Shown piece after piece: positions 296-28,300 of a DNA stretch of 64,000 nucleotides; the first letter of the stretch is position 1; the number at the start of each line of letters is the position of its first letter. Made by a program: the position numbers and the translations under genes. Source of the DNA: Pristiophorus japonicus (Eukaryota); NCBI RefSeq assembly GCF_044704955.1, contig NC_091993.1:111104001-111168000 (forward strand). Reading direction: 5' to 3'. A model generated the notes under the pieces. It searched no databases and was not told where the DNA came from. It worked only from the letters and a program-made list of their open reading frames with translations.

Positions 296-1579
296 GTTGA
301 GTGGCTGAAGAAAAACAACTATGGAGGAGCGATGGTGTGGGATCTTGCTCTGGATGATTTCTCTGGTGCTTTCTGCAACCAGGGGCCTTACCCTCTCATT
401 AACAAACTGCACACCGGGCTTGGAATTTCTGCAGGTAAATGTCAGGATTATTTATACTTGGAGCTGATTACTTGTTGCTTACCACAAAGTCAGCATGGAA
501 AGCCATTAATGGCTAAAATCATTCAGAAATTGTTTGGATTACCTCAGTGTATTTCAAATTCAATACTTTTAAAGTGGCAAAAATTCTGACCACTAGAATA
601 TTGCTGAGCGTCTATGAGCATAAAGTTCCTCAGACAGGACGAGCAATGCAGCAAAATACTGAAACATGTATATGTGTTAACAGAATAAGACACAAATCCA
701 TGCTGGATGTTGCATCCAGTATGTAATGGCACTAAAAAATAGTGACGATGTGCATTGTAATATTGTGTCATTTAAAGGGACAATGTATTGCGATACAACT
801 TTACCAAGTTTTTTTTAAATGAAAGGAAGTTCAGTAACATCTGCCACAAATGTTGTGTATTCAAAACAGAAAATGCTGGCAGTACTCAGCAGGCCAGGCA
901 GCAGCTTTGGAGAGAGAAGCAGAGTTAACGTTTCAGGTCTGTGACTCTGTTTCTCTCTCTCTCTCCACAGATGCTGCCTGGTCTGCCGAGTGTTTCCAGA
1001 ATTTTCTCTTTAGATTTCAGATTCCAGATTCCAGCATCTGCAGTATTTTGCTGTTGGAGTAATGTTGTGTAACTTGACTTAAAATAGAACTATAATTAAA
1101 TCACACTTCAAATACACTCCAGACACAATGTGCCACATCACAAGATTTCCTCAGTGGCCCTTATTGAGCTGAACTTCACAAACATCTTGTTCCTGATAAC
1201 GCAAGGAACTGAGTTCACCCTGAAGATATTCAATGCAGCAACATCCCTTGAACTTGCAATGCTTAGCTTCAGTTGATATCAATTTTGAAGCAAGCAATGA
1301 ATGAATGAACTTTATTTCCTTCCAGCTTGTGTTCCATCGAAAACAACACTACGACCAAATGTTCCTCCTACTCATGTCCCCAGTGGTGGTGGCGGTGGCG
1401 GGAGTGGTGGTGGTGGCGGTGGTGGCAGTGGGTTCTGCGCTGGCAGATCTAACGGTACCTACCCTGATCCAAAGGATAAGAACAAATTTTATCAATGTGT
1501 CTATGGAGTGACCTACGAGAAGCATTGCGCTGTTGGATTAATCTTTGATACTTCCTGTAACTGTTGCAACTGGGCTTAA
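296..1579 (+). CDS. chia: GH18 acidic chitinase (CHIA-like), copy A, 3' part (exons 10-11)
   Basis: Exon 10 at 296-434 encodes [38 protein letters not shown]. Exon 11 at 1326-1579 encodes a Gly-rich hinge plus CBM14 [11 protein letters not shown]...FYQCVYG...[16 protein letters not shown] splice sites are present. Confidence 0.93.
863..1052. repeat. Palindromic (hairpin-forming) interspersed repeat in intron 10 (also at 22367-22556 and 43864-44053; half copy at ~16720-16860)
   Basis: aaaatgctggcagtactcagcaggccaggcagc...ggagagagaagcagag is followed by its imperfect reverse complement ctctgtttctctc...gctgcctggtctgccgagtgtttccagaatttt. Confidence 0.7.
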
Positions 1580-2336: not shown

Positions 2337-2440
2337 ATTAAGAAATAGACATAATATATAAGTTGTTTGTATGCATCTGATGTCACATTAAAATATTATT
2401 GTTCAATAAGAGAACACAAAGATGCTCTTTATTTTTCCAG

Positions 2441-2620
2441 CCTGCAATCAATCTTTGTTGAATACCGATGAGGCTGTAACTGGCCTTCAGTTTAATTACG
2501 GAAATGACACCACTTTGCGGATAAAGACCATTAAACTACAACATCTAATTTGTCTCAACTGAAGATAGCAATTGCAGTTAAAGCAGCAAAATAAAATAAT
2601 TGATTCCTGAAGATAACAGT
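2441..2620 (+). other. Putative non-coding terminal (3'UTR) exon and poly(A) signal of copy A
   Basis: Donor AAG|GTAAGC at 1594, acceptor ctctttatttttccAG ending at 2440, AATAAA at 2590-2595 followed by the GT-rich tract ttacttgtgttttgttt. Confidence 0.55.
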
Positions 2621-3409
2621 TTACTTGTGTTTTGTTTATAAATTAAATGCAACAATTTTTGGTGAAAAGAATTTTGCTGCATGAATCCACTTCTGATGTA
2701 ACTGTTAACTGCAGAAGCAGCATTTCAAACCTTCACACAAACTCAAATCACAGCAATCTGATGTCTATAGGGATTCCTGCACTTCACAGGGAAAATATTG
2801 TTGGGTTCGCCTCAGGAAGGAAAACTGGACTTAACTGAGTTTTCGTATTCTGCTTTCTACCAACTTTAATCCTGTTTCCACTATAAATTGATACCAATCA
2901 TTTACATAGTGGATTGACTAAGTGTTTGGGAGACAGATACTGGCGATGGAGGGTTGTGGGACAGGGTGGGGGTTGGGGAGAGGATTTTAATTGCCAGCAG
3001 CTTTCTGATTCACATCTGCCTGTGGCAAAATGCGGCTACATTATGATTGATGCTGCTTTCTCTTGTCTGTGCAGGATATAGGTGCAAGCTACAGAGTATT
3101 GTGCCAATGTATTTATCCACCCCTCCACCTGAAGGTTTGTGTGTGGTGCAAGTAACTATGAGACAAAGGGAATTAAAAATCCAAAACAAAATAGCAGAAA
3201 ATCTTCATTCCAAGATTGCATCTCATTTTATTTTGTTTTTGTGCTCAAGGAAAGAGAAGTGTTACAGAGAGAGCAAAGGAATACAGGGGAAACAAGACAG
3301 CTTGAACAAATCAAGCAGGATCATTGTTTACTGTGTCCAGAGACTGATTAGAAAATCACACAAATATTATGCTCAGGTTCTTAGTTGACACCATTGCACC
3401 TGTTTCCAG

Positions 3410-3568
3410 TCCCACCCACCCCTTCCTTCGACGACTCTCTGTTCCACCTGTGACAGAGTCTGTGGCTCTTGTATTGGACTGTTCAGCTACCAAAGAACTC
3501 ACTTCAGGAGTGGAAGCAAGTCTTCCTCGATTCTGAGGGACTGCCAATGATGATGATGATGATGATGT
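3410..3568 (+). mobile_element. RTE 3'-end fragment with (gat)n tail (also at ~24913-25071 and ~46413-46571)
   Basis: Reverse-complement homolog of 14286-14440, ending gggactgccaatgatgatgatgatgatgatg. Confidence 0.8.
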
Positions 3569-4056
3569 TTCTATTGACAAATACTCAAATTATTCAATGG
3601 TCTCTGATTCTCTGCTACTTTTTTTTAGTCATGAAACAACTTTTCTCTTAGACAAGTAATTTATCAAACAATCAGTTTAATAAAATGAAAATATAGCTGT
3701 GCTTACTGACAGCGCAATCTTACACAGCCACATTGAATTCCGATAAATACAATGACGGCCTAGCAGATTATCAAGTTCATTTTCATTTTACGTGCTTTTA
3801 ATTTTCATTTATAGTTTGAGGCAATGTGTTGCAATCAAATCTATTTATTACTGTTACATTAATTAAGTAATAAATCTGATGGTAGGATTATCCCCAATAC
3901 ACTGGTAATATTTACTACGAACATTTGGACCAACATATAATCTGTCAGGCTTGCTTTGGCACCCTGCCTCCAAATTGCCTCCAGAAATAGTAGTTGTAGT
4001 AATGGTGGTTGGAGTGGTGGTAGTGGGAATAGTGGTTATAGGTGGTGATGCTGTAC

Positions 4057-5000
4057 TGTTAGAAATTTAAGACTATCTCTGGTCACTTTAATAATCAGGA
4101 TCGACTGTAAAACCAATCTGGTGGATATATTGTGCTTAATCAGAGGTTAAGACGGAATATAACACATTAGTTTTATAGCAAAAACATACAACCGTAACAG
4201 GTAGTTGATACCGATTCTGACCGGACAAATGGCTGGCGCATGTGAGCAGTTCCCTGGCTTGCAGTCTCTTTCTCTCATCTCGAGCTTCCTTCGGTGAAGC
4301 ATGGGATCAGTCTCGAAAAGTGTTCGACCAGCTAAACTTCTGTTTCGCCCTTCCCTCATACCACCTTTGAGATCAATCTTGAGGAGGCTACTTTTATTCC
4401 ATTTTTAGGGGTGGGCCTGACCCTGGATATTGACAAGACCTTTTGACCTTTAGAGGTTTCTCTAAAAACTTACTATCCAATAAGACTTCTAGTTCTTTGC
4501 CTCGATTCTTGTTTCAAGAACCCGCCTAAAAGATGTCTTATTTTGGCCACGTGTCACTCTGCACTAACACAGGGTTTCTTCCTGTGGAAATCACTCTCAT
4601 CTCTCTCTTCCTGATCCTCTCCTTTGATCCCATGAAGCCAAATCATAAAACTGCTCGTTATCTCTTTTACGACGTAGCTACATTTTTATGTTAACACTCT
4701 CAACTTCCATCCATTATTTTCGCCAGCAGTTTTGTTAAGGCAACTTCAAACTCTACCCTTCGTATTATACATAAAATACATAAACAAGGTTCAAGTCTTA
4801 CCTTAAAAGCAACAGATAATCACATAGCAACAGGGATGGTACATAGTACAAAGAACTATACCCTCCATTTCTAAGCATGTCTCTGATTCGAATAGACAGT
4901 CCGTCTGCAGTTTAAAACAATGAATTAAACACAGCATTCGTATCAGTTTTATACATTCGTAACAGTTTTATACATTTTTAGGCATCCCTGATTTCTAACA
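4057..5000. mobile_element. Solo-LTR-like insertion, 944 bp
   Basis: TG...CA ends with a perfect 10-bp inverted repeat (tgttagaaat/atttctaaca) and a 4-bp target-site duplication GTAC at 4053-4056 and 5001-5004. Confidence 0.8.
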
Positions 5001-6391
5001 GTACCTGATGGTAGCTCACATTCTGTAAAACAAAATGTGAATAGTATTTTAATGATTTGGATTTGATTATGTTGATTAAGATTTTCATTCTCTTGTCATA
5101 CTCGGTTGACCTCGCACATAAATACATTGTGAGAACAGGACAAGTGGGCACAAAGTCCGAGAATGCAAATTCAGGCCTGATATCGCAAATTTATCCTTCA
5201 CAACAATTTACACTTACATAGCACCTTGAATGGAAAATATGCTGCACAGAGTCAGAAAACGATATTGAGCAGCAGCAGGAGAAACATCTGGAGGTGACTG
5301 AGGCCATGGCGAAAGAGGAAGGATTTGAGGCTCTGTAGAGGGACAGGATGAAGAAGGCTTTAGGAACAGAGCTCCAGAGTGTAGGGCCAAGACAATTGAA
5401 TGGACTGCCATTGTAGGTGGATTGGAGGAAGGGAGAATACAGAGACAAGAGCTGGACGAGTAGAGGATGCATGTGAGCACGTTGGCCTGAAGGAGGTTGC
5501 AGAGGAAGAATGGGTTGAGGCCATGGAGGGATTTGTAAATCAGGTTGAGAACTTTGCTTTTGCATTTGACACAACACCTTCTCCCAACTAACTTACACCA
5601 TCATTTGTAATTTACAATCTCGACATATTGATAGAGCTTGACATTGCCATTATTTGTGTAATATTTAACTGTTTGCAATAATACTACACAATCTCCCATG
5701 ACATTGCACACGGGCAGTGAAGACCAAGTGTAGCCTTTCGGCAGGAGCTGGGTTAGCGGGTGGGGATAATTGGACCAGGGACCGCTGATGCAATGCGGTC
5801 CTCAATGAAAGTCATGCATTATGTCATTTTCATAAAAATACTTTTGTTTTATATTAATTATAGTAAAACAGAAAAAATTATGACAAATTTGAAGGAGAGA
5901 AGTAGAGTTTGTCAGTACAGAAGTGTTTCTCTGCAGTGCAGCTGAGGAATGGAGATGCCGATCAGAGGCGTATCAGCGCCACCACTGATGGGAGTGTGTA
6001 ATTACAGTCTGAGAAGTTGATAGAGGCAGTTTCCTTTAGAACTGTGGACAGGGGAGTTTAAAATGGAAAAGGTAGGCACGAGCATGAGAACAAGAAGCGA
6101 GGCTTTGCATACAGGAAATGCATGCAGACATAAGGTTTGTTAACAGATTATAGATAGGAGCAATAGGATACATGTTAAAAATAATCTCTTTACCAATATC
6201 TCTTCACTTTAAATAATCAGGTTTGAGTGCAATCCAATATGGTGGGTAGATTGTGTTTAAGACGAAATATCACACATTAGTTATACAGCAAAACATATGA
6301 CCGTGACGAGTATCTGACACCAATCTGATCGTACAGATGTTTGACACACTTGACCATCATCATCATAGGCAGTCCCTTGGAATCGAGGAAA

Positions 6392-7010
6392 CACAGAAAC
6401 ATAGAAAATAGATGCAGGAGTAGGCCATTCGGCCCTTCGAGCCTGCATCGCCATTCAATAAGATCATGGCTGATCATTCCTTCAGTACCCCTTTCCTGCT
6501 TTCCCTCCATACCCGTTGATCCCCTTAGCCGTAAGGGCCATATCTAACTCCCTCTTGAATATATCCAATGAACTGGCATCAACAACTCTCTGCGACAGGG
6601 AATTCCACAGGTTAACAACTTTCTGAGTGAAGAAGTTTCTCCTCATCTCAGTCCTAAATGGCCTACCCCTTATCCTAAGACTATGTCCCCTGGTTCTGGA
6701 CTTCCCCAACATCGGGAACATTCTTCCCGCATCTAACCTGTCCAGTCCCGTCAGAATCTTATACGTTTCTATGAGATCCCTTCTCATTCTTCTAAACTCC
6801 AGTGAATAGAGGCCCAGTTGATCCAGTCTCTCCTCATATGACAGTTCAGCCATCCCTGGAATTAGTCTGGTGAACCTTCGCTGCACTCCCGCAATAGCAA
6901 GAATGTCCTTCCTCAGATTAGGAGACCAAAACTGAACACAATATTCCAGGTGAGGCCTCATTAAGGCCCTGTACAACTGCAGTAAGACCTCCCTGCTCCA
7001 ATACTCAAAT
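6392..7010 (-). mobile_element. CR1 LINE 3' fragment (also at ~27895-28513 and ~49396-50014)
   Basis: ORF 6482-7108 (-) contains the CR1 ORF2 C-terminus (LYRALMRPHLEYCVQFWSP...TRGHSLRI...FFTQKVVNLWNSL), followed by a 3'UTR with a tttctatg-type tail. Confidence 0.9.
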
Positions 7011-8172
7011 CGCTGAGGGGATTTGTAGGATCTTGCGGAGACATCGCTGGTGGTATTACTCCAGCGACTTGAGGTGTCTATTGCACATGGTGCACGTCTC
7101 TGAGCCATACAGGAGGGTGGGTATTACCACAGCCCAGTAGACCATGAGCTTGGTGACAGTTTTGAGGGCTTGATCTTCAAACACTCTCTTCCTCAGGCAG
7201 CCGAAGGCTGCACTGGCGCACTGGAGGCGGTGTTGGATCTCGTCGTCACTGTCTGCCCTTGTTGCTAGGAGGCTCCCAAGATAAGAGAAGTGGTCTACGT
7301 TGTCCAGGGCCGCGCCGTGGATCTTGATGATTGGGGGGTAATGCTATCCGCTGAGGATAGGCTGGTGGAGGACCTTTGACTTACTGATGTTTAGCGTAAG
7401 GCCCATGCTTTCATACGCCTCGGTAAATACGTCGACTATGTCCTGGAGTTCACCCTCTGTGTGTGCACAGACGCAGGTGCCGTCCGCATACTGTAGCTCG
7501 ATGACAGAGGTTGGAGTAGTCTTGGGCCTGGCCTGGAGATGGCGAAGGTTGAACAGCTTCCCACTGGTTCTGTAGTTTAGTTCCACTCCAGCGTGGAGCT
7601 CGTCAACTGTGAGGTGGAGCATGGCAGCGCGGAAGATTGAGAAGAGGGTTGGAGCGAAGACGCAGCCCTGCTTCACCCCGGTCCAGATGTGGATTGGGTC
7701 TGTGATGGATCCGTTGGTAAGGACCATGGCCTGCATGTCGTCATGTGGTAACGTACTTTTAGGGGCATCCGAAACAGAGGAGGACGCTCCATGGACCCTC
7801 GCGGTTGACAGTGTCAAAGGCCTTTGTAAGGTCGAAGAAGGCCATGTATAAGGGCTGGCGCTGTACCCTGCATTTTTCCTGCAGCTGTCGTGCTGCAAAG
7901 TTCATGTCCGTTGTGCCCCAGAGGGGATGAAATCTGCACTGCAACTCCGGGAGCAGCTCTTCGGCCATGGGGAGAAGATGGTTGAGGAGGACTCTCGCGA
8001 CAACTTTCCCAGTGGCTGATAGCAGGGCAATTCCTCTGTAGTTGCCGCAGTCCGACTTGTCCCCTTTTTCAAAGATGGTCACAATTACTGCATCTCTAAA
8101 ATCTCCCGGCATGCACTCCACCCTCCAGACGAGAGAGATGAGGTTGTGTATTCGCCTCAGCAGGGATTCCAT
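7011..8172 (-). mobile_element. RTE-clade LINE reverse-transcriptase fragment, frameshifted (also at ~28514-29675 and ~50015-51176)
   Basis: Motifs KGDKSDCGNYRGIALLS, AFFDLTKAFDTVNRE, GVKQGCVFAPTLFSIF and ELQYADG. The (cat)n tail remnant lies at 6355-6391. Confidence 0.88.
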
Positions 8173-9346
8173 CCACTCCCGTAGCTTGTTTGTTAGCTGC
8201 CTTTCAACCTCTTCCTTGCAGCCTCTTTCTCTTAATCTAAAGCTTACTTTGCTTTCTCTCTCTCTTCTATCTGTGAGCTCCCTTTTCCCTCTCTTACTTC
8301 CGTCTGTAAGGCTAAGCTTCTGGGAGGTCACATTTAACCTATTTTTAGGGGTGGGCCTGAACCGGGATATTGACCAGACCTTTTGACCTATAGAGGTTTC
8401 CCTAAAACTTTAATACCCAATGGCGTATTGTGTTCTTTGTCTCGATTCTTGTGTCAAAGCCTGTCATTAATATTTTGGCAACACTTCCTTCTCTGTTTAC
8501 ACTTTCCCAGGCTTCGTTCTTTGAAATTCGTATCTTATGTCTTTCGTCCTTATCCTGCCTTTTGATCTCATGAGGCCCAAGCCAGAAACCTGTTCGCTTC
8601 AGAGTGTTACCTCCTTTATGACATAACAAATTGTCCTGTGTTTACGCTAAATTCTACCAAACTTCCTTCCATTATCTTTGCAAGCAGTTCTGTTAATCAA
8701 ACTTCAAATCCTACCTTAGCATTGTACATAAAATACATAAACAAGGCTCAAGTCTTAACTTAATAAAACAACAGATAATCGCTCAGCAACAGAGAGAATG
8801 TTTCTAGTACAAAGAACCCACGCCATCCACCGGAAACCAAGACATTAGCATTTCTAAGCATCGATCTGGTCCGAAGAGACTTTTTATCTGCAATTTGAAC
8901 ATCAGAGTTTAAACACAGCATTTTTTCACAACACAGCTTTAATCGCATAACCATATGCATTTTTAGGCATCTATAGTTTCTAACATGCAGTTCAGTTTTA
9001 GTTGGGTTACATATAATAATTAATCCAAACCATTGAGGAGCATCAATGTGTTGATCAAAGGGCAAGTTCCGTCATTGAATTTACTTCCACTGAAATCATC
9101 CAGATCCAAAGCCCACACCATGGCACCGCAAAATTTGTTACCCTTCAGCCATTGAGCCGACAGTTAAAAAGATACTAAAATACAATTGAGAAGTGCTTTT
9201 TGTTAAATAAAATTAACATTTTATTGAAAATCTAATGCTTTTCCTGCTAAAATACTGCATGGGTTAAAAACTGATATATAGAAGGTGCTCGAATGACTGG
9301 GTGTACTTAAAGCGGATAAGTCACCAGGACTGAATGGGATGCATTC

Positions 9347-10700
9347 AAGGATGTCATAGCAGCGCATTTGGAAAGAGGTAATATGATAGGTTCAAGTCAG
9401 CATGGATTTGTGAAAGGGAAATCATGCTTGACAAATCTTCTGGAATTTTTTGAGGATGTTTCCAGTAGAGTGGACAAGGGAGAACCAGTTGATGTGGTAT
9501 ATTTGGACTTTCAGAAGGCTTTCGACAAGGTCCCACACAAGAGATTAATGTGCAAAGTTAAAGCACATGGGATTGGGGGTAGTGTGCTGACATGGATTGA
9601 GAACTGGTTGTCAGACAGGAAGCAAAGAGTAGGAGTAAATGGGGATTTTTCAGAATGGCAGGCAGTGACTAGTGGGGTACCGCAAGGTTCTGTGCTGGGG
9701 CCCCAGCTGTTTACACTGTACATTAATGATTTCGACGAGGGGATTAAATGTAGTATCTCCAAATTTGCGGATGACACTAAGTTGGGTGGCAGTGTGAGCT
9801 GCAAGGAGGATTCTATAAGGCTGCAGAGTGACTTGGATAGGTTAGGTGAGTGGGCAAATGCATGGCAGATGAAGTATAATGTGGATAAATGTGAGGTTAT
9901 CCACTTTGGTGGTAAAAACAGAGAGACAGACTATTATCTGATTGGTGACAGATTCGGAAAAGGGGAGGTGCAAAGAGACCTGGGTGTCATGGTACATCAG
10001 TCATTGAAGGTTGGCATGCAGGTACAGCAGGCGGTTAAGAAAGCAAATGGCATGTTGGCCTTCATAGCGAGGGGATTTGAGTACAAGGACAGGGAGGTGT
10101 TGCTACAATTGTACAGGGCCTTGGTGAGGCCACACCTGGAGTATTGTGTACAGTTTTGGTCTCCTAACCTGAGGAAGGACATTCTTGCTATTGAGGGAGT
10201 GCAGCGAAGGTTCACCAGACTGATTCCCGGGATGGCGGGACTGACCTATCAAGAAAGACTGGATCAACTGGGCTTGTATTCACCGGAGTTCAGAAGAATG
10301 AGAGGGGACCTCATAGAAACGTTTAAAATTCTGACGGGGTTAGACAGGTTAGATGCAGGAAGAATGTTCCCAATGTTGGGGAAGTCCAGAACCAGGGGAC
10401 ACAGTCTAAGGATAAGGGGGAAGCCATTTAGGACCGAGATGAGGAGGAATTTCTTCACCCAGAGAGTGGTGAACCTGTGGAATTCTCTACCACAGAAAGT
10501 TGTTGAGGCCAATTCACTAAATATATTCAAAAAGGAGTTAGATGAAGTCCTTACTACTAGGGGAATCAAGGGGTATGGTGAGAAAGCAGGAATGGGGTAC
10601 TGAAGTTGCATGTTCAGCCATGAACTCATTGAATGGCGGTGCAGGCTAGAAGGGCCGAATGGCCTACTCCTGCACCTATTTTCTATCCATGTTTCTATGT
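9347..10700 (+). mobile_element. CR1 LINE, 5'-truncated and chimeric; open 411-codon RT/C-terminal frame at 9368-10603
   Basis: Motifs QHGFVKGKSCLTNL, YLDFQKAFDKVPH, SGVPQGSVLGP and KFADDTKL, followed by a CR1 3'UTR and tttctat tail. Confidence 0.93.
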
Positions 10701-11118
10701 TATGATGAACCTTTATAAAACACTGGTTCGGCCTTAACTGGAGTATTGTGTCCAATTGTGGGAACTGCAGTTTAGGAACAATGTGAAGGCCTTAGAGGGG
10801 GTGCAGAAAAGATTTACAAGACTGATTCCAGGAATGAGGGACTTCAGTTACGTGGATAGACTGGAGAAGCTGGGGTTGCTCTACTTCGAGCAGGGAAAGC
10901 TGAGAGGAAATTTGATACAGGTGTTCAAAATCTTGAGGGGTCGAGATAGAGTAGATAGAGAGAAATTGTTCCCATTGGCAGAATGACCGAGACCAGAGGA
11001 CACAGATTTAAGGTGATTGGCAGAAGAACCAAAGGCGACATGAGGAAAAACCTTTTTTCGCAGTGGGTGGTCAGGATCTGGAATTCACTTCCTGAAAGGG
11101 TGATGGGGGCAGATGCAA
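10701..11118 (+). mobile_element. 3' segment of the older CR1 (also at ~32203-32620 and ~56685-57102)
   Basis: Degenerate ORF2 C-terminus: ALEGVQKRFTRLIPGM...TRGHRFKV...VVRIWNSLP. Confidence 0.8.
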
Positions 11119-11265
11119 TTCCGATGCCGAGCCTGCCTACAGGTCGGTCTGGGGATGGTGGGGGAGTGAAGCTACTGGGTGCGGGACTGGACCGGCAATA
11201 ATGTTGTGGAGCCAGGAGCAGCACGTTACCCTCCTGGGCCAACAGAACAACTGGGTGGAGCCAAC

Positions 11266-11893
11266 TGCAAAGGGGATGGAGTATAAAAGCAGGGAAGTCT
11301 TGCTACAGTTGTACAGGGTATTGACGATGCCACACCTGGAATACTGCGTGCAGTTTTGGTTTTCATATTTACGAAAGGATATACATGCTTTGGAGGCAGT
11401 TCAGAGAAGGTTCACAAGGTTGATTCCGGAGATGAGGGGGTTGACTTATGAGAAAAGATTGAGTAGGTTGGGCGTCTACTCATTGGAATTCGGAAGAATG
11501 AGAGGCAATCTTATCGAAGCGTATAAGATAATGAGGGGGCTTGAATAGGTGGATGTAGAGAGGATGTTTCCACTGATGGGGGAGACTAGAACTAGAGGGC
11601 ATGATCTTAGAATAAGGGGCCACCCATTTAAAACTGAGATGAGGAGAAATTTCTTCTCTCAGAGGGTTGTAAATCTGTGGAATTCGCTGCCTCAGAGAGC
11701 TGTGGAAGCTGGGACATTGAATAAATTTAAGATAGAACTAGGCAGTTTCTTAAACGATAAGGGGATAAGGGGTTATGGGGAACGGAGCTGAGACCATGAC
11801 CAGATCAGCCATGGTCTTATTAAATGGCGGAGCAGGCTCGAGGGGCAGTATGGCCTACTCCTGTTCCTATTTCTTATGTTCTTATGTTCTTAT
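11266..11893 (+). mobile_element. CR1 3' fragment of another subfamily (also at ~32768-33395 and ~57250-57877)
   Basis: Reads GMEYKSREVLLQLY...PHLEYCVQFW...TRGHDLRI, with a (ttcttatg)n tail. Confidence 0.85.
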
Positions 11894-12147
11894 TAGCTCC
11901 GCACATTTGCAAATCAATTTTGATCGGGATCCTAAACCTGGCAGAAAGATTTGAATCTGCGAGGTGCTTAACTTATGTTTCAGGCAGATGCCCTGCACAC
12001 CTAGTCGCTGCTTCCAATCAATGGTTTCATAAAGCAAAAATGTATGAAAATACATGTTAAGCCAAAGATGCCCCTGCCAAGCCAGCAACTTTGGGCAGAA
12101 AAATATATAAAGCAAGTGGGTACACTGTGAAAATGAGATAATTGAAA

Positions 12148-12460
12148 GGCAGAAGCGTCAGTAACCAGAGGACACCGATTTAAGGTGATTGCCAAAAGAA
12201 GCAGAGGTGACATGAGGAAACATTTTTTTACACAGCAAGTTGTTGTGCTCTGAACTGCACTGCCTGAAAGGGTGGTGGAAGCAGATTTAATTGTAACATT
12301 CAGAAGAGAATTGGATGAATACTTAAAGAGAAAACATTTACAGGGCTAGGGGGACAGAGCAAGGGAGTGAGATTAATTGGATAGCTCTGTGAAAGAGCCT
12401 GGCACAGGCACGATAGGCTAAAGGGTCACCTTCTGTGCTGTATCATTCTACGATTCTATG
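12148..12460 (+). mobile_element. Short CR1 3'-end fragment (also in units 2 and 3)
   Basis: accagaggacaccgatttaaggtgattg... resembles 10992-11110 and ends in an attcta-type tail. Confidence 0.7.
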
Positions 12461-13294: not shown

Positions 13295-13328
13295 AGGGAG
13301 TTGATCTCCACAACACACCAGTTACAAG

Positions 13329-16300
13329 ATGGCAAAGCTCCTGGTTGCAACAGGTAAGCATGTTTTACCATTTCATTACTTTCGATGTTGTAAGATTTTT
13401 CAGAAAATTTAGCTCTAAGATACCAATGGGGAATAGAACAAAGTGAAGACTCTTTTCTCAAATTCAAGTCTAATTAAAAAAGATTTGATTTTCTTTCTGT
13501 GTTATCTGAAGATACGTTACTGTTGATAGCACGCTGCTAAGTGCATGTTTTGACCAAAATTAACAGCAACAACAACAACTTGTATTTATATAGTGCCTTT
13601 AACATAGTGAAACATCCCAGGGTGCTTCACAGGAGTATTGAGAGACAAAAAGTTTGACCCCAAGCCACATATTAAGGCAGGTGACCAAAAGCTTTGTCAA
13701 AGAGGAAGGTTTTAAGGATGGTCTTGAAGAAGGAAAGAGAGGTAGAGAGGCACTCCAAATGACCCAACCCCATCGGATTATCTCCCTCCTGTTCCCCAAT
13801 AAATGCTCTTTAACTGTACCGTGCATCATTATACTTCTGTTGTGATCAGATACAAGCAAGCAGGTGACCAAAAGTGATTCTGAGTCAATTCTCAGGTCTA
13901 CCAGCTTCAGTTTTTAACTAATTGCGAAATGAACGTGAACAAATGGGGTTAAATTGTAATGAGTGATAGCAGTAGAATTGCATGAAGTGGAAGGAGGCTG
14001 TCTGTGTGATGGAGAGAATATGGGCTTGGAAGTTCCATTTGTGATTGAATACGACACGCGTTTGCGAGCAGTCTGGTTCAGCCTGAGACTGTAGCCAGGA
14101 ACGAGTTGATGGCAAAATTGGGGATGGGAGCCAAAGATGAAAACTTCGCTCATTCCAATGTTTAGCTGGAAAAAAATTGTGACTCATCCAAAACTGGTTG
14201 TTGGACAAGTTATCAGACAGTACAGGGGCACTGGAGGTGTGAAGAAGGTTGGTGGTGAGGTAGAGCCGATGTCATCAACGTACATCATCATCATCATCAT
14301 AGGCAGTCCCTCGGAATCGAGGAAGACTTGCTTCCACTCTTGAAGTGAGTTCTTTGGTGGCTGAACAGTCCAATACGAGAGCCACAGACTCTGTCACAGG
14401 TGGGACAGATAGTTGTTGAGGGAAGGGGTAGGTGGGACTGCTTTGCCGCATGCTCTTTCCGCTGTCTGCGCTTGATTTCTGCATGCTCTCGCCATTGAGG
14501 CTTGAGATGCTCAGCAGCCTCTCGGATGCACTTCCTCCACTTAGGGCGGTCTTGGGCCAGGGACTCCCAGGTGTCAGTGGGGATGTTGCACTTTATCAGG
14601 GAGGCTTTGAGGGTGTCCTTGTACTGTTTCCGCTGCCCACCTTTGGCTCGTTTGCCATGAAGGAGCTCCGAGTAGAGCACTTGCTTTGGTAGTCTCGTGT
14701 CTGGCATGCGGACTATGTGGCCTGCCCAGCGGAGCTGATCGAGTGTGGTCAGTGCTTCAATGCTGGGGATGTTAGCCTACATCAACGTACATGTGGATGC
14801 TGACCCCATGTCTGCAGATTATGTCGTTAAAGGGCAGCATATAGGTGAGGTAAAGGATTGTGCCAAGGATAGGTTCTTGTGGGCTCCCAGCCACACATAT
14901 AATAGGCTCATTGTGTATCCTTGAATCTTTAAGCATATTTTGATCATAATTCTAAAACTTACTTTATATCCTTTATTGCAGTGGTGGTCTTGTTGGCGTG
15001 CCTGGAACTGGGTAAGTCTTTGTGCATTTCAAGCGTTCCTTTATTTTAATGTAATGTGTGGAAGCACTGTCCTGATTTCCATTTCTCCCCACTCACAGGC
15101 TCTGCCTACAGACTGGTTTGTTACTTTACAAACTGGGCTCAGTACAGGCCAGGAGCGGGGAAGTACAAGCCGGAGAATGTGGACCCTTGCTTGTGCACAC
15201 ATCTGATCTACGCTTTTGCTGGGATGAAGGACAATCAAATCGCCACCTATGAATGGAACGATGTTACTCTCTACCACTCATTCAATTCCCTTAAAAACAA
15301 GTATAATTATGCTATAAATATTGACAATGTACCTGAAATACTAAGCATTGTTTGATGTCTGTGTTATATTTTGTTTTATATTCCAAAATTGTGCCCATTT
15401 ATATATAAATATAACTTGTCTGACCCAGCCAGAGAGGTGATATATGTGTAGAATTGGCTTACGATTTGCGTCTCACAAGTGGAGATTGAGTCAATGCCCA
15501 ATGGTTCTGACAATGCCCAATGTAGAATGAAGCATATCATGATATCACCACGTAAACAAAAACACCTATTCATTCAACAACGCAATGCGCAACCCTTAGG
15601 CCGGTCTATCAAAGTAACAAGTTGTTTTAATGGGTGTGCAGCTAGATTATACTTGCCACATGCACTGAACTTTGCACTTGCTTCTGAATCTCAGAGTACA
15701 CTGGAGCACATGCAGACATGTGTGCCGTGCAAAGTGCAGTGCGTACACACCTGCATATATACAGTGACACTGGGTATCGGAGATAGCTGGAACAATCAGT
15801 CTGCTCACCAACACCGGGTGAGTGAGATGACATTATTTAATGCACTTTAATTGTTCCAGACTGCTACAAAGGCACAGATCAACTCATATTTTCACAAAAA
15901 ACCACCCCGCCCCAGTTTTGTATCCCCAATTGTTAGTGATTCTGTCCCCCTGTTTTAAAACTCCTCTCTTGTCATTTTCCCTACTCTGCCTTAGAGGACA
16001 GCTAGGTGACTTGCTCCCAGGGCTATGCAGGTGATGTTCATTGGAAGCTGCATAAATGTGGTGCAGAGAGATTTGTCAGTAAATGTGTGTTCTGCATTCA
16101 GGTACTTCCATTCAACCAAATTCAGCAGCACAAGGAGAAAGCAGTTAAAGATGAGAACAGTAATGATTTTCAGCAATTACTGAAGTGTTATTAAATGCAT
16201 TTGCTTATGTTCTAATTTTACAACAGAAATGGAAACCTTAAGACACTTCTGTCCATCGGAGGCTGGAACTTTGGAACTCAGAAGTAAGATGGAAATATTT

Positions 16301-19300
16301 TATTTTGGTATTGAGTGAAAAGTGATTCTTTTCCAATTGCTTGTGATGCAAAGTGAACTGGGGACAGACATATTGTGGGCAATGATAACCATGCAGTTTT
16401 CGATAAATATATCGGAGGTTAGCTTATAGTATTTCTTGAATGAGTGATTAAGCTGGGCTGTCTGTAAAATGTAAATCAAACAATATTTAGGGGCTGATAT
16501 TTGTCTGAAAGGAAAGATTGCAACATTTTCAGAAAGAATCATTTCAAGTTAATACACTTGGTGAAGATTGATTGAACTGATTACTGAGAGCAGCAACAAT
16601 ACAACACTTAGCAATTATATTTTTGTAAATTCCTGGTATATCTTGAAATGATAAAAATTATGGAGCTCTTTCAGGTACAGGCTGAAATGACTAAATCAAA
16701 AATGCATCTGTTCTGAAATAAAAACAGAGCATGCTGGAAACACTCAGCAAGTCGGGCAGCTTCTGTGGAGCGAGAAACAGGGTTAAGGTTTCAGGCCAAT
16801 GACACTTCCTCAGCACTGGAAAAAGTTAGAGATGTAACAGGTTTTAAGCAAGTACAGAGGCAGTGAAAGTTGATGGGAGGAGTGATTAAATGACAAAAGA
16901 GATGACGGTGTTCTGATTTTTCTTTAACATTATCCTCTCCTCCAGATTCAGCGCTATGGTTTCCTCATCAGCAACTCGCCAAACATTCATAAAGTCTGTG
17001 ATTAGCTTCCTGCGCGGTTATGGGTTTGATGGTTTGGATATAGATTGGGAATATCCCGGGTCAAGGGGAAGCCCCCCACAAGACAAACATCTCTACACTC
17101 TGTTGACACAGGTGGGATTTAAAATACGATTTCATCAATTCCATGTAAATGGAATATTCAAAGTAGAAATATATGTATTTACTTCGCAAAACACTTTAAT
17201 CGCAGCTTCATTAACCACTGTGATAAGAAAAAAATGTTTGTTGTGACTCTGTGCAATAACTGCTATCCATCTAGGCTCTGTTGAAACCTGGTTCTACCTC
17301 TGGCTATACCCTTGTATTCGATACATTATTATGCAACACTTGGGCATGGATACATTTTATAATTCTTTAGTCGGTGATTGAAACCCTCTGTTTTGCGTGG
17401 ACCAGTTGCTAAGAGAACCTTTATTCACTTTCAACTTTTAGGAAATGATGGCAGCCTTCGAGGCTGAGGGGAAAAGTTCCGGGACTCCAAGACTCTTGCT
17501 CTCAGTTGCAGTTGCTGGTGGGAAGAGCAACATTGATACCGGCTATGAGGTTCCTCAGGTTGGACAGTAAGTATCCATGCCAGTCCTACAGGACTTTCTG
17601 ATTTTTTTGTGCTTCCTTGGTAGTTCAGCAAATTTAACTAGTTAGTAGCTGGGCCATACAGCCCTGGAAAGTCCCAGGTTCCATCTCCAGTCTGTACTGA
17701 GTGGAACTGTCTTTCGAATGACACATTAAACCAAGGCCCCATCTGCTCTTTCAGCTCGACATAAAAGATCCCATGGCACTATTTTAAAGAAGAGCAGAGG
17801 AGTTATCCCCGATGTCCTGGCCATTATTTATCCCTCAACCAACATCACTAAAAAACAAATTATCTGGTCATTATCACATTGCTGTTTGTGCGAGCTTACA
17901 GTGTTCAAATTGGCTGCCGCGTTTCCTACATTACAATAGTGACTACACTTCAAAAGTACTTCATTGGCTATAAAGTGCTTTGGGACGTCCGGTGATCGTG
18001 AAAGACACTATATAAACACACGCCTTTCTCAATTTTTCTTTGAGTTGGCTGAACCCAGCTGAGGCAATGTTAGAGATGCTAAAGATGTTCTTGGTATTGC
18101 TGTTCTGATTCCTGATTGCAAGCAGGGAATGTGAAGAAGAGAGGGGCAGAGTGCAGGGCGGGTGAAGGAGAGAAGGTCAGTATTTGCCAATTTGACAACC
18201 ATTCATAAAATCTGAGCTTAGCTTCTTGCACGTTATGGGTTTGATGGTTTGGACATAGACTGGGAATATCCCATCAGTGCTGCATTCACAACGTGAGTCA
18301 TGCTGAGAAAGCAGTACAAATGATTCTTTCTTTCCATGAGTAATAAAATATGAATGGCAAATGTAGTCAATGTTACAGTTCATGGAAATGCAGCACTAAC
18401 TTGTTCACACCAAGGACCCAGAAAAAGCAATGAGATAATAACCAGATATTTTGTGGGTTATTTTGGTGGTGATGATTCAGGGATAAATATTGTTCAGGAT
18501 ACAAGGACAACTCCTTGCTCATCTTTAAATAGTGTTATGGGATATTTTACATCCATCTGAGAAGGAACATTCTGGCATAATATTTCATCTGAATGACAAC
18601 ATCTCTAACAGTGGAACACTCCCTCAGTTTTGACATCCTGACACATGAATAATGGGTTTTGATAATAAGGAAATAATTTATAGTTAAAATGCACCATAAC
18701 AATGAATAGAAAGGTATGTCTAAATGATATAGGAATTGCCCACACATTAAGACTCCCTCTTCAATCATCTTTCAGTCTATAGTTCTTGGTATTGTGTTCT
18801 CATTTAGATCCCATGAAGGTAAAGACCCTGCTCTGATCTGTTGGACATAAATGTCACATGGCACACATCAAGCTGTACAGTCCTCTGGGCAGACCAAGCC
18901 CCACCTGAGGACTTGAACACATAATCTCAGCTGTCCCACCAGTGCAGTACCAAGGGAGCACGGCACTACCATTCTTTGGATGAGACGTTAAACTGAGGTC
19001 CTGTCTACCCTCTCAGATGGATGTAAACGGTCCCATGACGCTATTAGAAGAGCTGTTCTCCCAGTGCCCTGGCCATCATTTTATCCCTCAGACAACAGCA
19101 TTAATGTAGTTTCAGACACTTCAAAAGTAATTCATCAGCTGTAAAGTACTTTGGGATGTCCCGAGGCCATGAATGGTCCTGTTTAAATGCAGCATCTTTC
19201 TTTGCTTTGCTCTATAGCTTCAATTGTCAGAACTTCTTTGTGCAATGATTCAGATCATTGTCATTAAATTTAGCAACCAGGAAAATAAGAAATAGGAGCA

Positions 19301-22300
19301 GGAGCAGGCCATTTGGCCCCTTGAGCGAGAACATCAATGTAATGTATGCACCTGTGAGTATGCTCACAGGTTGGTAGAGCTGTTGAGTTGGGAGTGGCTT
19401 AGCTATCCACAAGATGTTCACAAGACTCAATAAAACCCCAGCCAGTTGGGTTCAGGGGATCCATGATGAGGCAGGTGGTTGTGAGCCTAGTGGTTGAACT
19501 GGTAATGTGTCGTGTGATTGTTTAACAAAGTATCAGTGTAACTTGGATCTTTTCTCATACAGAGTCGTGGACTTTTTCAATGTGATGACGTACGATTTCT
19601 TTGGTCCCTGGAGCCATGTCACTGGAGAAAATAGCCCTCTTTATCCTCTCCCAAATAACCAAGACACTACAAACCTGTACTTCAATGTGGTAAGTACTCA
19701 TGATAATAGAATCCCATCATGCTAATTATTTCCATTTATAAATAGATAACTATCTTTTACCAGAGGTTTTGCAGAGTCCTTCTTGCGTGAACATGAATGT
19801 TAATGCTTTCTCTGCAGAACTATGCAATGAAATACTGGAAAGATAAAGGAGCTCCTGCAGAGAAACTGAATGTTGGATTTCCTACATATGGCCATGCCTT
19901 GAGACTGGCCTCCTCCAACACTGGGCTTGGAGCCCCAACAGCAGGTCCTGGACCAGCTGGGAAGTACACCAGACAGGCTGGATTTTTGGCCTATTATGAG
20001 GTATTGATACTGATGCAGTTTCTTTACGTTTTAATATCTTATATTTTTAAATACAAAATAACCAAGTACCACATTCTACCCCCAAATACCTCAAGCTTTA
20101 CTGCAACATCTGCATTATTGCAATCATACGAATTTCCTGAGGTAGATTAATTAACATATTATAATGTATCAGAAAAGCCTGTGCTACCTTTGTGATGTTC
20201 AGGTGATGGAAGTCTCAAATTTGTGTCATGAAACTCTGATGAACAGAGATATAATGCCACACCTTTCATCATTGGATGGCACTTGACTATCTTCCTCTGG
20301 CCATTGTTGTCAGTCCTGGAAATTATATAAAGAGGTAAGATATAATCTTTTATATCCCCCTCCCCTCCCCTCCCCCCCTTAACGGAACATCCAGGGTTTC
20401 ATGCACAAAGATTACAGTCAATCCTTACCAGCTTGTATCCCGATCTCTTGTACTATTTACCCACTGACGGAATGGGTAAGGAACTTGGTGTTGATGTCAT
20501 CTCTTCAGCCAGTCTCTTTATCTCCCCTGTGAGTAAAGTCCAGGTGCCTCTTTGGCTCCTCCACAGCCTCAGATTGGGAAGTTGCAGTGTGAGGAATCAT
20601 TCATAACCTTTTAAGAAAAGGTAGTGCTACTTAATGAACATCTGAGGATGTATTGGTCAGCATTTGCTCAGACCATATTCGGAATATGAATTAAAATAGT
20701 TTTCAGCAGCAAAAGAAAAGAACAGTGCCTCCTGTTTCAAGATTATATTTGAGAGAAAATGATAGCTGAATAAAACAAACAATGAAAAATGACGTGAGTA
20801 AGGTCGTTAACATCACGTAGAGCACTGCGAACCACTGATGATTTGTCCCACTGATGTTTGTAGCCTAATGTCTCACTCTTCTGTCAGATCTGCACATTTT
20901 TGAATGGTGCCACCATGAAATGGGATGCTGCTCAGATGGTTCCGTATGCCTATAAAGGAAATGAATGGGTTGGATATGACAACGTGCAAAGCTTTGGAGA
21001 CAAGGTAACTTCGATAAACTCTGCTGTTCGACACCTTTTACTTGTTGCTTTGATGCAATATTTATTGTAATATACAACTAGTTTGTGCGAGTAAGCATTA
21101 GAATCATTTTGTTATATTGATCGATTGAATAACTGGAACACACATTCCCTGTCATTACACCATTACTTATAGGATGCTTGGAGCATTCTGCGCTCAAAGA
21201 CTTCTGCACAGTTGTAAAATGTATCTAACATTGGTCTTCCATCCTGGTGATGAGGCCAGGAAAAAACACACCAAAAGTTTCCAGTGAGACAACAGAATGA
21301 AAACAGTTCCTTCATGTCCCAAATGCCTGGTGATTTAGCGGTTTGAGTGGTTATTCATTTAAAATGGATGCGACATCTTTTTTGAAGTGTTTGAACCGCA
21401 GCTTGTATTTCTGATTTAGTCCCTTACACACAAATATCGAGAGAAGTTCATATTTCTGTCAACTCACCTCTTTGCGGCCAAAATACACTCAGTGACAGAA
21501 ACAGAGACAGTTTCTGTAATGACTCACTTCAGAGATACAAATACAGCAATATCAATGATATTTGGAATATCTGCCTTTATAGTCATTACAGAAAATATTA
21601 CCCTGTCCCCTAGTCCATGACAAAACATGAATGAAGCAATATTCATGCAGAGGTAGCAGTGGACCTTTGGCATTTTCACAATTTTGGAAGATCCTTTTTG
21701 CATTCAGTTCAGGGCCGTTGTAAATCTTAAATATATTTGGGATAAAACTTGCTTGGAAACAAGATTTGCAAAATAAATTTGTGAACAATTGCCTTCCAGG
21801 TTGAGTGGCTGAAGAAAAACAACTATGGAGGAGCGATGGTGTGGGATCTTGCTCTGGATGATTTCTCTGGTGCTTTCTGCAACCAGGGGCCTTACCCTCT
21901 CATTAACAAACTGCACACCGGGCTTGGAATTTCTGCAGGTAAATGTCAGGATTATTTATACTTGGAGCTGATTACTTGTTGCTTACCACAAAGTCAGCAT
22001 GGAAAGCCATTAATGGCTAAAATCATTCAGAAATTGTTTGGATTACCTCAGTGTATTTCAAATTCAATACTTTTAAAGTGGCAAAAATTCTGACCACTAG
22101 AATATTGCTGAGCGTCTATGAGCATAAAGTTCCTCAGACAGGACGAGCAATGCAGCAAAATACTGAAACATGTATATGTGTTAACAGAATAAGACACAAA
22201 TCCATGCTGGATGTTGCATCCAGTATGTAATGGCACTAAAAAATAGTGACGATGTGCATTGTAATATTGTGTCATTTAAAGGGACAATGTATTGCGATAC

Positions 22301-23083
22301 AACTTTACCAAGTTTTTTTTAAATGAAAGGAAGTTCAGTAACATCTGCCACAAATGTTGTGTATTCAAAACAGAAAATGCTGGCAGTACTCAGCAGGCCA
22401 GGCAGCAGCTTTGGAGAGAGAAGCAGAGTTAACGTTTCAGGTCTGTGACTCTGTTTCTCTCTCTCTCTCCACAGATGCTGCCTGGTCTGCCGAGTGTTTC
22501 CAGAATTTTCTCTTTAGATTTCAGATTCCAGATTCCAGCATCTGCAGTATTTTGCTGTTGGAGTAATGTTGTGTAACTTGACTTAAAATAGAACTATAAT
22601 TAAATCACACTTCAAATACACTCCAGACACAATGTGCCACATCACAAGATTTCCTCAGTGGCCCTTATTGAGCTGAACTTCACAAACATCTTGTTCCTGA
22701 TAACGCAAGGAACTGAGTTCACCCTGAAGATATTCAATGCAGCAACATCCCTTGAACTTGCAATGCTTAGCTTCAGTTGATATCAATTTTGAAGCAAGCA
22801 ATGAATGAATGAACTTTATTTCCTTCCAGCTTGTGTTCCATCGAAAACAACACTACGACCAAATGTTCCTCCTACTCATGTCCCCAGTGGTGGTGGCGGT
22901 GGCGGGAGTGGTGGTGGTGGCGGTGGTGGCAGTGGGTTCTGCGCTGGCAGATCTAACGGTACCTACCCTGATCCAAAGGATAAGAACAAATTTTATCAAT
23001 GTGTCTATGGAGTGACCTACGAGAAGCATTGCGCTGTTGGATTAATCTTTGATACTTCCTGTAACTGTTGCAACTGGGCTTAA
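13329..23083 (+). CDS. chia: GH18 acidic chitinase (CHIA/AMCase-like), copy B, complete, 11 coding exons, 474 aa
   Basis: Exons: 13329-13353, 14982-15011, 15099-15300, 16227-16283, 16946-17111, 17442-17566, 19563-19689, 19818-20000, 20888-21004, 21800-21938, 22830-23083. Total 1425 nt, open frame, all introns GT-AG. Signal peptide [21 protein letters not shown], then [15 protein letters not shown], catalytic [11 protein letters not shown] (Glu140), and a C-terminal 6-Cys chitin-binding domain. Exon sizes 25/30/202/57/166/125 match the vertebrate CHIA/CHIT1 layout. Confidence 0.95.
13563..14890 (-). mobile_element. Degenerate L2-like LINE remnants in intron 1, hosting the RTE insertion
   Basis: An L2-type 3' tail (caacaacaacttgtatttatatagtgcc) and an antisense HMYVDD motif (YADD-like) spanning the RTE insertion site. 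Confidence 0.5.
14286..14779 (-). mobile_element. RTE-clade LINE 3' fragment in intron 1 (also at 35788-36281 and 60282-60775)
   Basis: [18 protein letters not shown]...[21 protein letters not shown], a (gat)n tail, and a 13-bp target-site duplication catcaacgtacat at 14273-14285 and 14780-14792. Confidence 0.88.
17708..18035 (+). mobile_element. Deu-domain SINE (SacSINE1/AmnSINE-like) fragment in intron 6 (also at ~39209-39536 and 63704-64000)
   Basis: Contains aaagatcccatggcactatt...cctggcca..atttatccctcaaccaaca, recalled as a Deu-domain-like core, and an L2-like 3' tail. It appears nested in an older tRNA-derived SINE (~17640-18170). Confidence 0.65.
18196..18272 (+). pseudogene. Degenerate partial duplicate of catalytic exon 5 inside intron 6 (copy B)
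   Basis: Aligns to 16980-17057 with 8 substitutions and a 1-nt deletion by manual count. The 3' part still reads [13 protein letters not shown]. Confidence 0.85.
18870..19205 (+). mobile_element. Second, more diverged Deu-domain SINE in intron 6 (also at ~40371-40706)
   Basis: ggatgagacgttaaactgaggtcc...cccatgacgctatt...ttatccctca is homologous to 17708-18035. Confidence 0.6.
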
Positions 23084-25365: not shown

Positions 25366-28300
25366 TTAAGTAATAAATCTGATGGTAGGATTATCCCCAA
25401 TACACTGGTAATATTTACTACGAACATTTGGACCAACATATAATCTGTCAGGCTTGCTTTGGCACCCTGCCTCCAAATTGCCTCCAGAAATAGTAGTTGT
25501 AGTAATGGTGGTTGGAGTGGTGGTAGTGGGAATAGTGGTTATAGGTGGTGATGCTGTACTGTTAGAAATTTAAGACTATCTCTGGTCACTTTAATAATCA
25601 GGATCGACTGTAAAACCAATCTGGTGGATATATTGTGCTTAATCAGAGGTTAAGACGGAATATAACACATTAGTTTTATAGCAAAAACATACAACCGTAA
25701 CAGGTAGTTGATACCGATTCTGACCGGACAAATGGCTGGCGCATGTGAGCAGTTCCCTGGCTTGCAGTCTCTTTCTCTCATCTCGAGCTTCCTTCGGTGA
25801 AGCATGGGATCAGTCTCGAAAAGTGTTCGACCAGCTAAACTTCTGTTTCGCCCTTCCCTCATACCACCTTTGAGATCAATCTTGAGGAGGCTACTTTTAT
25901 TCCATTTTTAGGGGTGGGCCTGACCCTGGATATTGACAAGACCTTTTGACCTTTAGAGGTTTCTCTAAAAACTTACTATCCAATAAGACTTCTAGTTCTT
26001 TGCCTCGATTCTTGTTTCAAGAACCCGCCTAAAAGATGTCTTATTTTGGCCACGTGTCACTCTGCACTAACACAGGGTTTCTTCCTGTGGAAATCACTCT
26101 CATCTCTCTCTTCCTGATCCTCTCCTTTGATCCCATGAAGCCAAATCATAAAACTGCTCGTTATCTCTTTTACGACGTAGCTACATTTTTATGTTAACAC
26201 TCTCAACTTCCATCCATTATTTTCGCCAGCAGTTTTGTTAAGGCAACTTCAAACTCTACCCTTCGTATTATACATAAAATACATAAACAAGGTTCAAGTC
26301 TTACCTTAAAAGCAACAGATAATCACATAGCAACAGGGATGGTACATAGTACAAAGAACTATACCCTCCATTTCTAAGCATGTCTCTGATTCGAATAGAC
26401 AGTCCGTCTGCTGTTTAAAACAATGAATTAAACACAGCATTCGTATCAGTTTTATACATTCGTAACAGTTTTATACATTTTTAGGCATCCCTGATTTCTA
26501 ACAGTACCTGATGGTAGCTCACATTCTGTAAAACAAAATGTGAATAGTATTTTAATGATTTGGATTTGATTATGTTGATTAAGATTTTCATTCTCTTGTC
26601 ATACTCGGTTGACCTCGCACATAAATACATTGTGAGAACAGGACAAGTGGGCACAAAGTCCGAGAATGCAAATTCAGGCCTGATATCGCAAATTTATCCT
26701 TCACAACAATTTACACTTACATAGCACCTTGAATGGAAAATATGCTGCACAGAGTCAGAAAACGATATTGAGCAGCAGCAGGAGAAACATCTGGAGGTGA
26801 CTGAGGCCATGGCGAAAGAGGAAGGATTTGAGGCTCTGTAGAGGGACAGGATGAAGAAGGCTTTAGGAACAGAGCTCCAGAGTGTAGGGCCAAGACAATT
26901 GAATGGACTGCCATTGTAGGTGGATTGGAGGAAGGGAGAATACAGAGACAAGAGCTGGACGAGTAGAGGATGCATGTGAGCACGTTGGCCTGAAGGAGGT
27001 TGCAGAGGAAGAATGGGTTGAGGCCATGGAGGGATTTGTAAATCAGGTTGAGAACTTTGCTTTTGCATTTGACACAACACCTTCTCCCAACTAACTTACA
27101 CCATCATTTGTAATTTACAATCTCGACATATTGATAGAGCTTGACATTGCCATTATTTGTGTAATATTTAACTGTTTGCAATAATACTACACAATCTCCC
27201 ATGACATTGCACACGGGCAGTGAAGACCAAGTGTAGCCTTTCGGCAGGAGCTGGGTTAGCGGGTGGGGATAATTGGACCAGGGACCGCTGATGCAATGCG
27301 GTCCTCAATGAAAGTCATGCATTATGTCATTTTCATAAAAATACTTTTGTTTTATATTAATTATAGTAAAACAGAAAAAATTATGACAAATTTGAAGGAG
27401 AGAAGTAGAGTTTGTCAGTACAGAAGTGTTTCTCTGCAGTGCAGCTGAGGAATGGAGATGCCGATCTGAGGCGTATCAGCGCCACCACTGATGGGAGTGT
27501 GTAATTACAGTCTGAGAAGTTGATAGAGGCAGTTTCCTTTAGAACTGTGGACAGGGGAGTTTAAAATGGAAAAGGTAGGCACGAGCATGAGAACAAGAAG
27601 CGAGGCTTTGCATACAGGAAATGCATGCAGACTTAAGGTTTGTTAACAGATTATAGATAGGAGCAATAGGATACATGTTAAAAATAATCTCTTTACCTAT
27701 ATCTCTTCACTTTAAATAATCAGGTTTGAGTGCAATCCAATATGGTGGGTAGATTGTGTTTAAGACGAAATATCACACATTAGTTATACAGCAAAACATA
27801 TGACCGTGACGAGTATCTGACACCAATCTGATCGTACAGATGTTTGACACACTTGACCATCATCATCATAGGCAGTCCCTTGGAATCGAGGAAACACAGA
27901 AACATAGAAAATAGATGCAGGAGTAGGCCATTCGGCCCTTCGAGCCTGCATCGCCATTCAATAAGATCATGGCTGATCATTCCTTCAGTACCCCTTTCCT
28001 GCTTTCCCTCCATACCCATTGATCCCCTTAGCCGTAAGGGCCATATCTAACTCCCTCTTGAATATATCCAATGAACTGGCATCAACAACTCTCTGCGACA
28101 GGGAATTCCACAGGTTAACAACTTTCTGAGTGAAGAAGTTTCTCCTCATCTCAGTCCTAAATGGCCTACCCCTTATCCTAAGACTATGTCCCCTGGTTCT
28201 GGACTTCCCCAACATCGGGAACATTCTTCCCGCATCTAACCTGTCCAGTCCCGTCAAAATCTTATACGTTTCTATGAGATCCCTTCTCATCCTTCTAAAC

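Follow-up and report, generated by a model that had tools for sequence, protein, structure and literature searches.

A probable chitinase pseudogene fragment, split by a solo-LTR-like insertion, in a recent tandem array of CHIA-like genes of the sawshark Pristiophorus japonicus

The window analysed here is a stretch of 64,000 nucleotides from P. japonicus (contig NC_091993.1, positions 111,104,001 to 111,168,000) and consists of three copies of a 21.5-kb unit that are 98.6–99.3% identical. Each unit contains one intact 11-exon GH18 chitinase gene on the plus strand. The window opens on exons 10–11 of such a gene, CHIA-like and with a poly-Gly linker (296..1579, stop at 1579), while the gene of the next unit is complete (13329..23083, 474 amino acids, introns all GT-AG). 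The plus-strand gene corresponds to P. japonicus AMCase-like proteins, with identities of 414/414 to P0143, 473/474 to P0141, 471/474 to P0139 and 413/414 to P0142. The units are near-identical and the CHIA-like tandem array is recent. Four copies of the gene are represented, at least in part, within the window (1–64000); the two complete coding sequences have 4 differences in 1425 bases, which change two amino acids, both in the CBM14 domain. Intron 6 of the plus-strand gene also harbours, on the same strand, an 85-bp piece that is 86% identical to catalytic exon 5 (18188–18272 and 39689–39773).

On the minus strand of each unit, tail-to-tail with the intact gene, lies the remnant of a second chitinase gene, of which the last coding exon (exon 11) is split by an insert of 944 bp. 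In the first unit, an 18-nucleotide 5' piece (5005..5022) follows an intact polypyrimidine-AG acceptor in phase 1, and the main piece (3898..4056), which encodes a Thr-rich linker and the first half of a CBM14 domain, is 81% identical to the P. japonicus protein P0016. A frameshifted tail (3872..3897) with the loss of one nucleotide and a TAA at 3890–3888 completes the exon, the end of which lies 2.3 kb from the stop codon of the intact gene. The same split exon with the same lesions recurs on the minus strand at 25366..26525 and 46866..48025. An earlier note, made from the letters alone, had proposed that excision of the insert and one GTAC would restore this exon in the phase of exon 11 of the functional gene. 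Excision reproduced the peptide that it quoted, and the phase is shared (AG|AA TGT on the minus strand, AG|CT TGT on the plus strand). The exon had been called invisible among the open reading frames, yet a stop-to-stop frame at 3863–4066 is listed once the start codon is waived. The tetrapeptide SYHQ that was expected after a one-nucleotide shift is present, but the TAA at 3890–3888 stands just before it; its supposed counterpart TYEQ is TYEK in the plus-strand gene of the first unit and occurs as TYEQ in the copy ending at 44580.

Kinship with chitinases, which the note proposed to check by similarity search, is firm: the segment 3893–4054 has a sole protein match among 235 candidates, P0016 (81% identity, E = 6.7e-16), a complete GH18 protein with a six-Cys CBM14 domain that is continuous across the insertion site. 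The 30-residue non-repetitive part of the exon scores 113 against P0016, compared with a mean of 24 and a maximum of 44 for 2000 shuffles. The six codons on the acceptor side of the insert agree with P0016 at five positions, a score equalled by 3 of the 127,964 18-mers of the window, the same number as there are units. A Pfam search for the predicted CBM_14 domain did find its first half (positions 1–27 of the 53 of the model, E = 0.01), but at 16.4 bits, below the cut-off of 22.1. A search of 50% cluster representatives gave 11 distant repeat proteins, six with CBM14 and five without; they are 30–44% identical in 3–26 stretches each, and none rivals P0016, which was itself absent from the output of that search.

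The earlier note was right about the exon 11 remnant and missed that the paralog also retains exon 10, encoding the end of the GH18 domain (9031..9157, minus strand; 30534–30660 and 52035–52161 in the other units). This exon is found by tblastn with the plus-strand protein (E = 2e-8) and with P0016 (E = 8e-14, 70% identity); it is 9 nucleotides shorter than exon 10 of P0016, has CG in place of the AG acceptor and has lost a conserved Cys. A motif scan did not detect it, owing to a Gly-to-Cys change, and Pfam returned nothing for the 44-residue piece at E = 0.01. A phase 1 GT donor (9030–9029) and the AG at 5024–5023 bound intron 10 of the remnant (5023..9030, minus strand), which carries another LTR-like element as well as pieces of LINEs. 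Beyond exon 10, intron 9 passes after ∼140 bp into LINE fragments. Searches of the minus strand of the window for exons 1–9 with six queries from the remnant's own clade (described below) and with the plus-strand protein gave none, save a chance-level match at E = 0.4; these covered exon 5 with its catalytic DxxDxDxE motif, which is absent from the remnant within the window.

The lesions of the remnant comprise the CG acceptor and nine lost nucleotides of exon 10, a stop within the insert, the frameshift, the TAA and a truncation of CBM14. Translation continued from the exon 11 acceptor into the insert meets an in-frame stop at 4951–4949. In the frame that follows the shift, nine further codons, which take in the TAA at 3890–3888, match P0016, with no similarity beyond, and two of the six cysteines of its CBM14 domain are kept. 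Contigs of sequencing runs X1 and X5 have 111 letters where the window has 57, a net absence of 54 nucleotides; this is consistent with the one lost in the frameshift together with the final 17 codons and the stop codon of P0016, minus a single base. From this arithmetic of lengths, rather than from the letters themselves, we infer that ∼53 nucleotides of CBM14, with four cysteines, were deleted after the frameshifted tail. Since the insert, the frameshift, the stop and the CG acceptor are common to all three units (∼99% identical), decay came before amplification. A functional gene of this type would have 11 coding exons, canonical splice sites, the catalytic exon 5 and a six-Cys CBM14 domain, a set that the remnant lacks; it shows instead the homology, the retained intron and flank and the lesions of a duplicated pseudogene. 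The still intact acceptor of exon 11 counts against full decay. To judge from these features of the sequence, the remnant is likely to make no protein.

Downstream of the exon extends a probable former 3' UTR and 3' flank (2474..3871, minus strand). The AATAAA reported at 3844–3849 is real (3849–3844 as read on the minus strand) but is one of nine AATAAA or ATTAAA hexamers on the minus strand of 1580–3900; with nine such hexamers and a related contig that continues past it, the signal was rejected as proof of a gene end. A repeat insertion at 3400–3667 in this flank (93% inverted match to 14283–14440) is skipped by contigs of runs X5 and X6, which cover 3078–3399 and 3667–3861.

The insert (4057..5000, entered without strand) begins with TGTTAGAAAT and closes with the exact reverse complement of that sequence, giving TG...CA ends and an inverted repeat that stops after 10 bp, and it is flanked by a GTAC target duplication (4053–4056 and 5001–5004). 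Identical ends delimit the copies in the other units (25560–26503 and 47060–48003), the three being 99.4–99.9% identical. Its longest stop-free frame is 85 codons. The family is multi-copy: bin depths in run X1 are 2,973–15,698 inside the insert against 46–112 in repeat-free bins, up to 119 contigs of that run cover a single position, and family members also occur among contigs of runs X5–X7. Solo LTRs of vertebrate LTR retrotransposons, of the Gypsy or ERV families, have TG...CA ends, a short inverted repeat and a 4–6 bp duplication and are non-coding. The insert resembles them in its ends, its 4-bp duplication, its size of ∼0.9 kb, its copy number and its lack of coding capacity. All local features tested (ends, duplication, empty site in P0016, multiple copies, non-coding content) are thus consistent with the solo LTR label that it had been given, and we regard that label as probably correct, on features of the sequence. 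Its orientation is taken from two weak motifs, a minus-strand TATAAA at 4177 and an ATTAAA at 4092. The second LTR-like copy, in intron 10 (6173..8985, likewise without strand), is ∼73% identical to the insert, is split by LINE fragments at ∼6350–8320 (RVT_1 at 7344–8409) and is flanked by TACA and TGCA; it is older, has the same orientation and lies at most 1.2 kb from the insert.

The closest intact relatives of the remnant are the P. japonicus acidic mammalian chitinase-like isoforms X1 and X2 (UniRef100_UPI00398ECEDA and UPI00398F3E29, here P0018 and P0016), so that the annotation of this species already contains a close, intact relative. The remnant shares with them 70% amino-acid identity in exon 10, 79–81% in exon 11 and nearly the same Thr-rich linker, and differs from them in comprising exons 10–11 only, with the insert, the frameshift, the stops and two of six cysteines. 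In a tree of exons 10–11 (25 proteins chosen from 162 plus the remnant with X at the breaks, 26 rows), the remnant and P0018 are sisters (SH-aLRT 98), with branch lengths of 0.24 and 0.042, respectively; this tree and the one described below are quick IQ-TREE runs with SH-aLRT support only. Compared with P0016, 10 of the 52 codons encode another amino acid, in each case through one base. Record 10 of run X5 matches the main piece of exon 11 with 12 differences and ends at 4056, the edge of the insert. This contig appears to be the P0016 gene; if so, at least 10 of the 12 differences are non-synonymous, compared with 75% expected without selection. The branch lengths and this conditional count, which are not a formal dN/dS, indicate relaxed selection.

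Contigs were drawn from four of the seven listed runs, those of X5–X7 being of unrecorded kind; they carry no strand, and no ranking of genes was based on depth. Among the matches listed, contigs of run X1 with a depth of ∼10.5–11 are 83–91% alike to the window at 2474–2905 and 3047–3338 (88–91%) and at 5033–5328 and 5679–6128 (83–86%), and stand beside near-identical contigs with a depth of 39–48. The depths differ by a factor of about 4; as depth is not copy number, this is no more than a hint, in agreement with the four near-identical annotated proteins. Because the lower-copy relative shares intron and flank, the remnant is a genomic duplicate and not a retrocopy; a retrocopy origin is ruled out by the retention of intron 10. 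The proposal that a separate chitinase paralog, its linker rich in Thr, lies tail-to-tail with the intact gene in all three units is upheld.

A tree of 55 chosen full-length proteins places 20 of them, 19 named as shark or ray, in one clade (SH-aLRT 100), here called the Thr-linker clade. It stands apart from the elasmobranch clade with poly-Gly linkers (SH-aLRT 100), which groups with AMCase-like proteins of bony fish, amphibians and birds. Four P. japonicus members of the Thr-linker clade group together (98), and the exon 10–11 tree places the remnant inside this clade with a support of 97. The 55-protein tree is without experimentally labelled CHIO or CHIT1 references, and its deep nodes have supports of 83–88. 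The linker of the remnant is 43% Thr and 7% Gly; Gly makes up at most 10% of the linker in 14 of 14 parsed Thr-linker members, all with Ser/Thr/Pro-rich linkers, and at least 21% in nine of ten poly-Gly members. Linkers rich in Thr are found in proteins of coelacanth, bowfin and lungfish as well (10 of the 12 outside proteins parsed). The linker does differ from poly-Gly, as the note had it, but its 'mucin-like' character is the ordinary state, since a Ser/Thr/Pro-rich linker marks the elasmobranch-wide clade as a whole. For six species, proteins of the Thr-linker and of the poly-Gly clade are recorded on contigs of equal length, which suggests that they form one shared cluster there.

Members of the Thr-linker clade include P0016–P0018, P0030, P0031, P0034, P0036, P0037, P0043, P0045, P0046, P0048, P0053, P0055, P0058 and P0072, and its proteins bear generic names, mostly 'AMCase-like'. 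P0017, P0068, P0048, P0064, P0081 and P0097 end at or just after exon 10, without CBM14; loss or mis-annotation of the last exon appears to recur in the clade. The three annotated members with a full exon 10 and P0055 are 65–74% identical to the remnant in that exon. P0017 was considered as the remnant's own 5' part and rejected, its exon 10 being only 65% identical, although its read-through tail is similar to the beginning of intron 10 of the remnant.

Between the truncated intron 9 of the remnant and the promoter of the following intact gene lies a cluster of LINE 3' fragments (9300..12450, plus strand; RVT_1 at 9320–10600, E = 2e-26) that is likely to hold the junction between units. LINE copies are found at 9347–10707 (junction 1), 30850–32209 (junction 2) and 52351–53718 and 55336–56691 (junction 3); the two at junction 3 are 95% identical and 3 kb apart, and that junction is 3 kb longer. 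Junctions 1 and 2 each have one LINE, which begins as the first of these two copies does and finishes as the second does; the switch points differ (near 9370 and near 10000). At 13 informative sites within 9380–10339 unit 1 agrees with the second copy and unit 2 with the first, and one site shows the opposite. Such a mosaic suggests that the LINE pair underwent separate crossovers or gene conversion; it favours LINE-mediated unequal crossing-over but is no proof of it.

Taken together, the remnant is very probably a lineage-specific duplicate that decayed, was hit by insertions, was passively co-amplified with the intact gene and does nothing. A genomic duplication in the sawshark lineage would have produced a second copy of a Thr-linker chitinase gene, introns and flank included, the copies now being ∼83–92% alike in DNA. 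One copy would then have decayed free of selection and received two insertions of one LTR-like family; the insert in exon 11 would be the solo LTR that remained when the two LTRs of a retrotransposon recombined. The 21.5-kb block that holds the intact poly-Gly CHIA-like gene and the fragment would subsequently have been amplified, probably by unequal crossing-over between the LINE copies at the junctions. Any selection on the array would act on the dose of the intact gene and not on the remnant.

Other readings concern separate parts of this account. The view that a Thr-rich stretch of low complexity produced the match by chance is practically untenable: it could appeal to the sub-threshold CBM_14 score and to the five cluster-representative matches without CBM14, but the non-repetitive part of the exon far exceeds the best shuffle, an exon 10 is found in the right phase further upstream on that strand, and the 11 matches are distant and multi-stretch, with CBM14 in six of them. 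The P0016 match, exon 10 and the shuffle test together refute it. For the insert, we consider it unlikely that it is instead a non-autonomous Ginger-like DNA transposon. Such elements have TG ends and a 4-bp duplication, with longer inverted repeats than LTRs. The duplication, the TGT...ACA ends and the lack of a coding frame would all suit that identity, as would a window without internal retrotransposon sequence, whereas the inverted repeat ends after 10 bp, as in LTRs, and the target sites of both copies are RY-alternating tetramers.

The possibility that the fragment is the 3' end of a damaged but complete gene, severed when the array formed, with exons 1–9 beyond the last unit, is a serious one, although we lean against it. 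Intron 9 does stop in LINE fragments at the apparent junction, and at least four annotated P. japonicus proteins belong to the Thr-linker clade; judged by the exon 10 identities given above, none of the four proteins compared there is the remnant's 5' part. This version differs from decay of a duplicate followed by passive co-amplification in history only. Very improbable, by contrast, is a regulatory role in which the insert would act as a minus-strand promoter and non-coding transcription, crossing the dead exon and the old 3' UTR toward the 3' end of the intact gene, would tune that gene, one such promoter per unit. The TATAAA and ATTAAA motifs lie near the end of the insert, the old UTR and flank are retained tail-to-tail with the gene in every unit, and insert-family contigs occur in runs X5–X7 of unrecorded kind. 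Both motifs, however, are missing from the second element copy, no contig among those listed is identical to the remnant exon, such a transcript would have 2.3 kb and nine polyA-like hexamers of its own strand to cross before the stop of the plus-strand gene, and the young array accounts for the occurrence in all units. Were it true, the dose of a stomach-type chitinase gene and an LTR-driven antisense brake on it would have been amplified together.

The remnant is thus most likely a duplicated chitinase pseudogene fragment, an ordinary passenger of a recent CHIA array, and of little importance in itself. As a marker it orders the events at the locus (duplication of the paralog, decay, two insertions, then amplification) and shows two elasmobranch chitinase lineages lying tail-to-tail. 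Specialist interest may lie in the context, a near-identical CHIA-like array in a shark and a well-supported elasmobranch clade. No description of sawshark chitinases or of the Thr-linker clade was found in the accessible literature, most subscription papers being outside that scope. A study by Hussain and Wilson (2013), cited in this literature along with one by Suzuki et al. (2014), may already deal with genes of sharks.

Known systems offer several points of comparison. Linkers followed by CBM14 are described for salmon stomach chitinases in one report (PMC10761930), and linker variation is treated in another, which cites a stomach chitinase of blue shark (PMC4728518). Vertebrate GH18 proteins have been divided into the clades CHIA, CHIO and CHIT1, with CHIA stomach-specific, in a study whose main text does not contain the word 'shark' (PMC10234404); in our 55-protein tree, the Thr-linker elasmobranch genes form a clade of their own, which may or may not be orthologous to CHIO or CHIT1. 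The CHIA genes of placental mammals share the 11-exon structure, are frequently pseudogenes and occur as tandem copies (PMC5955627). The mammalian losses described there are of whole orthologs and accompany shifts in diet, whereas the sawshark remnant is a redundant recent duplicate from another clade, beside an intact gene that is expanding.
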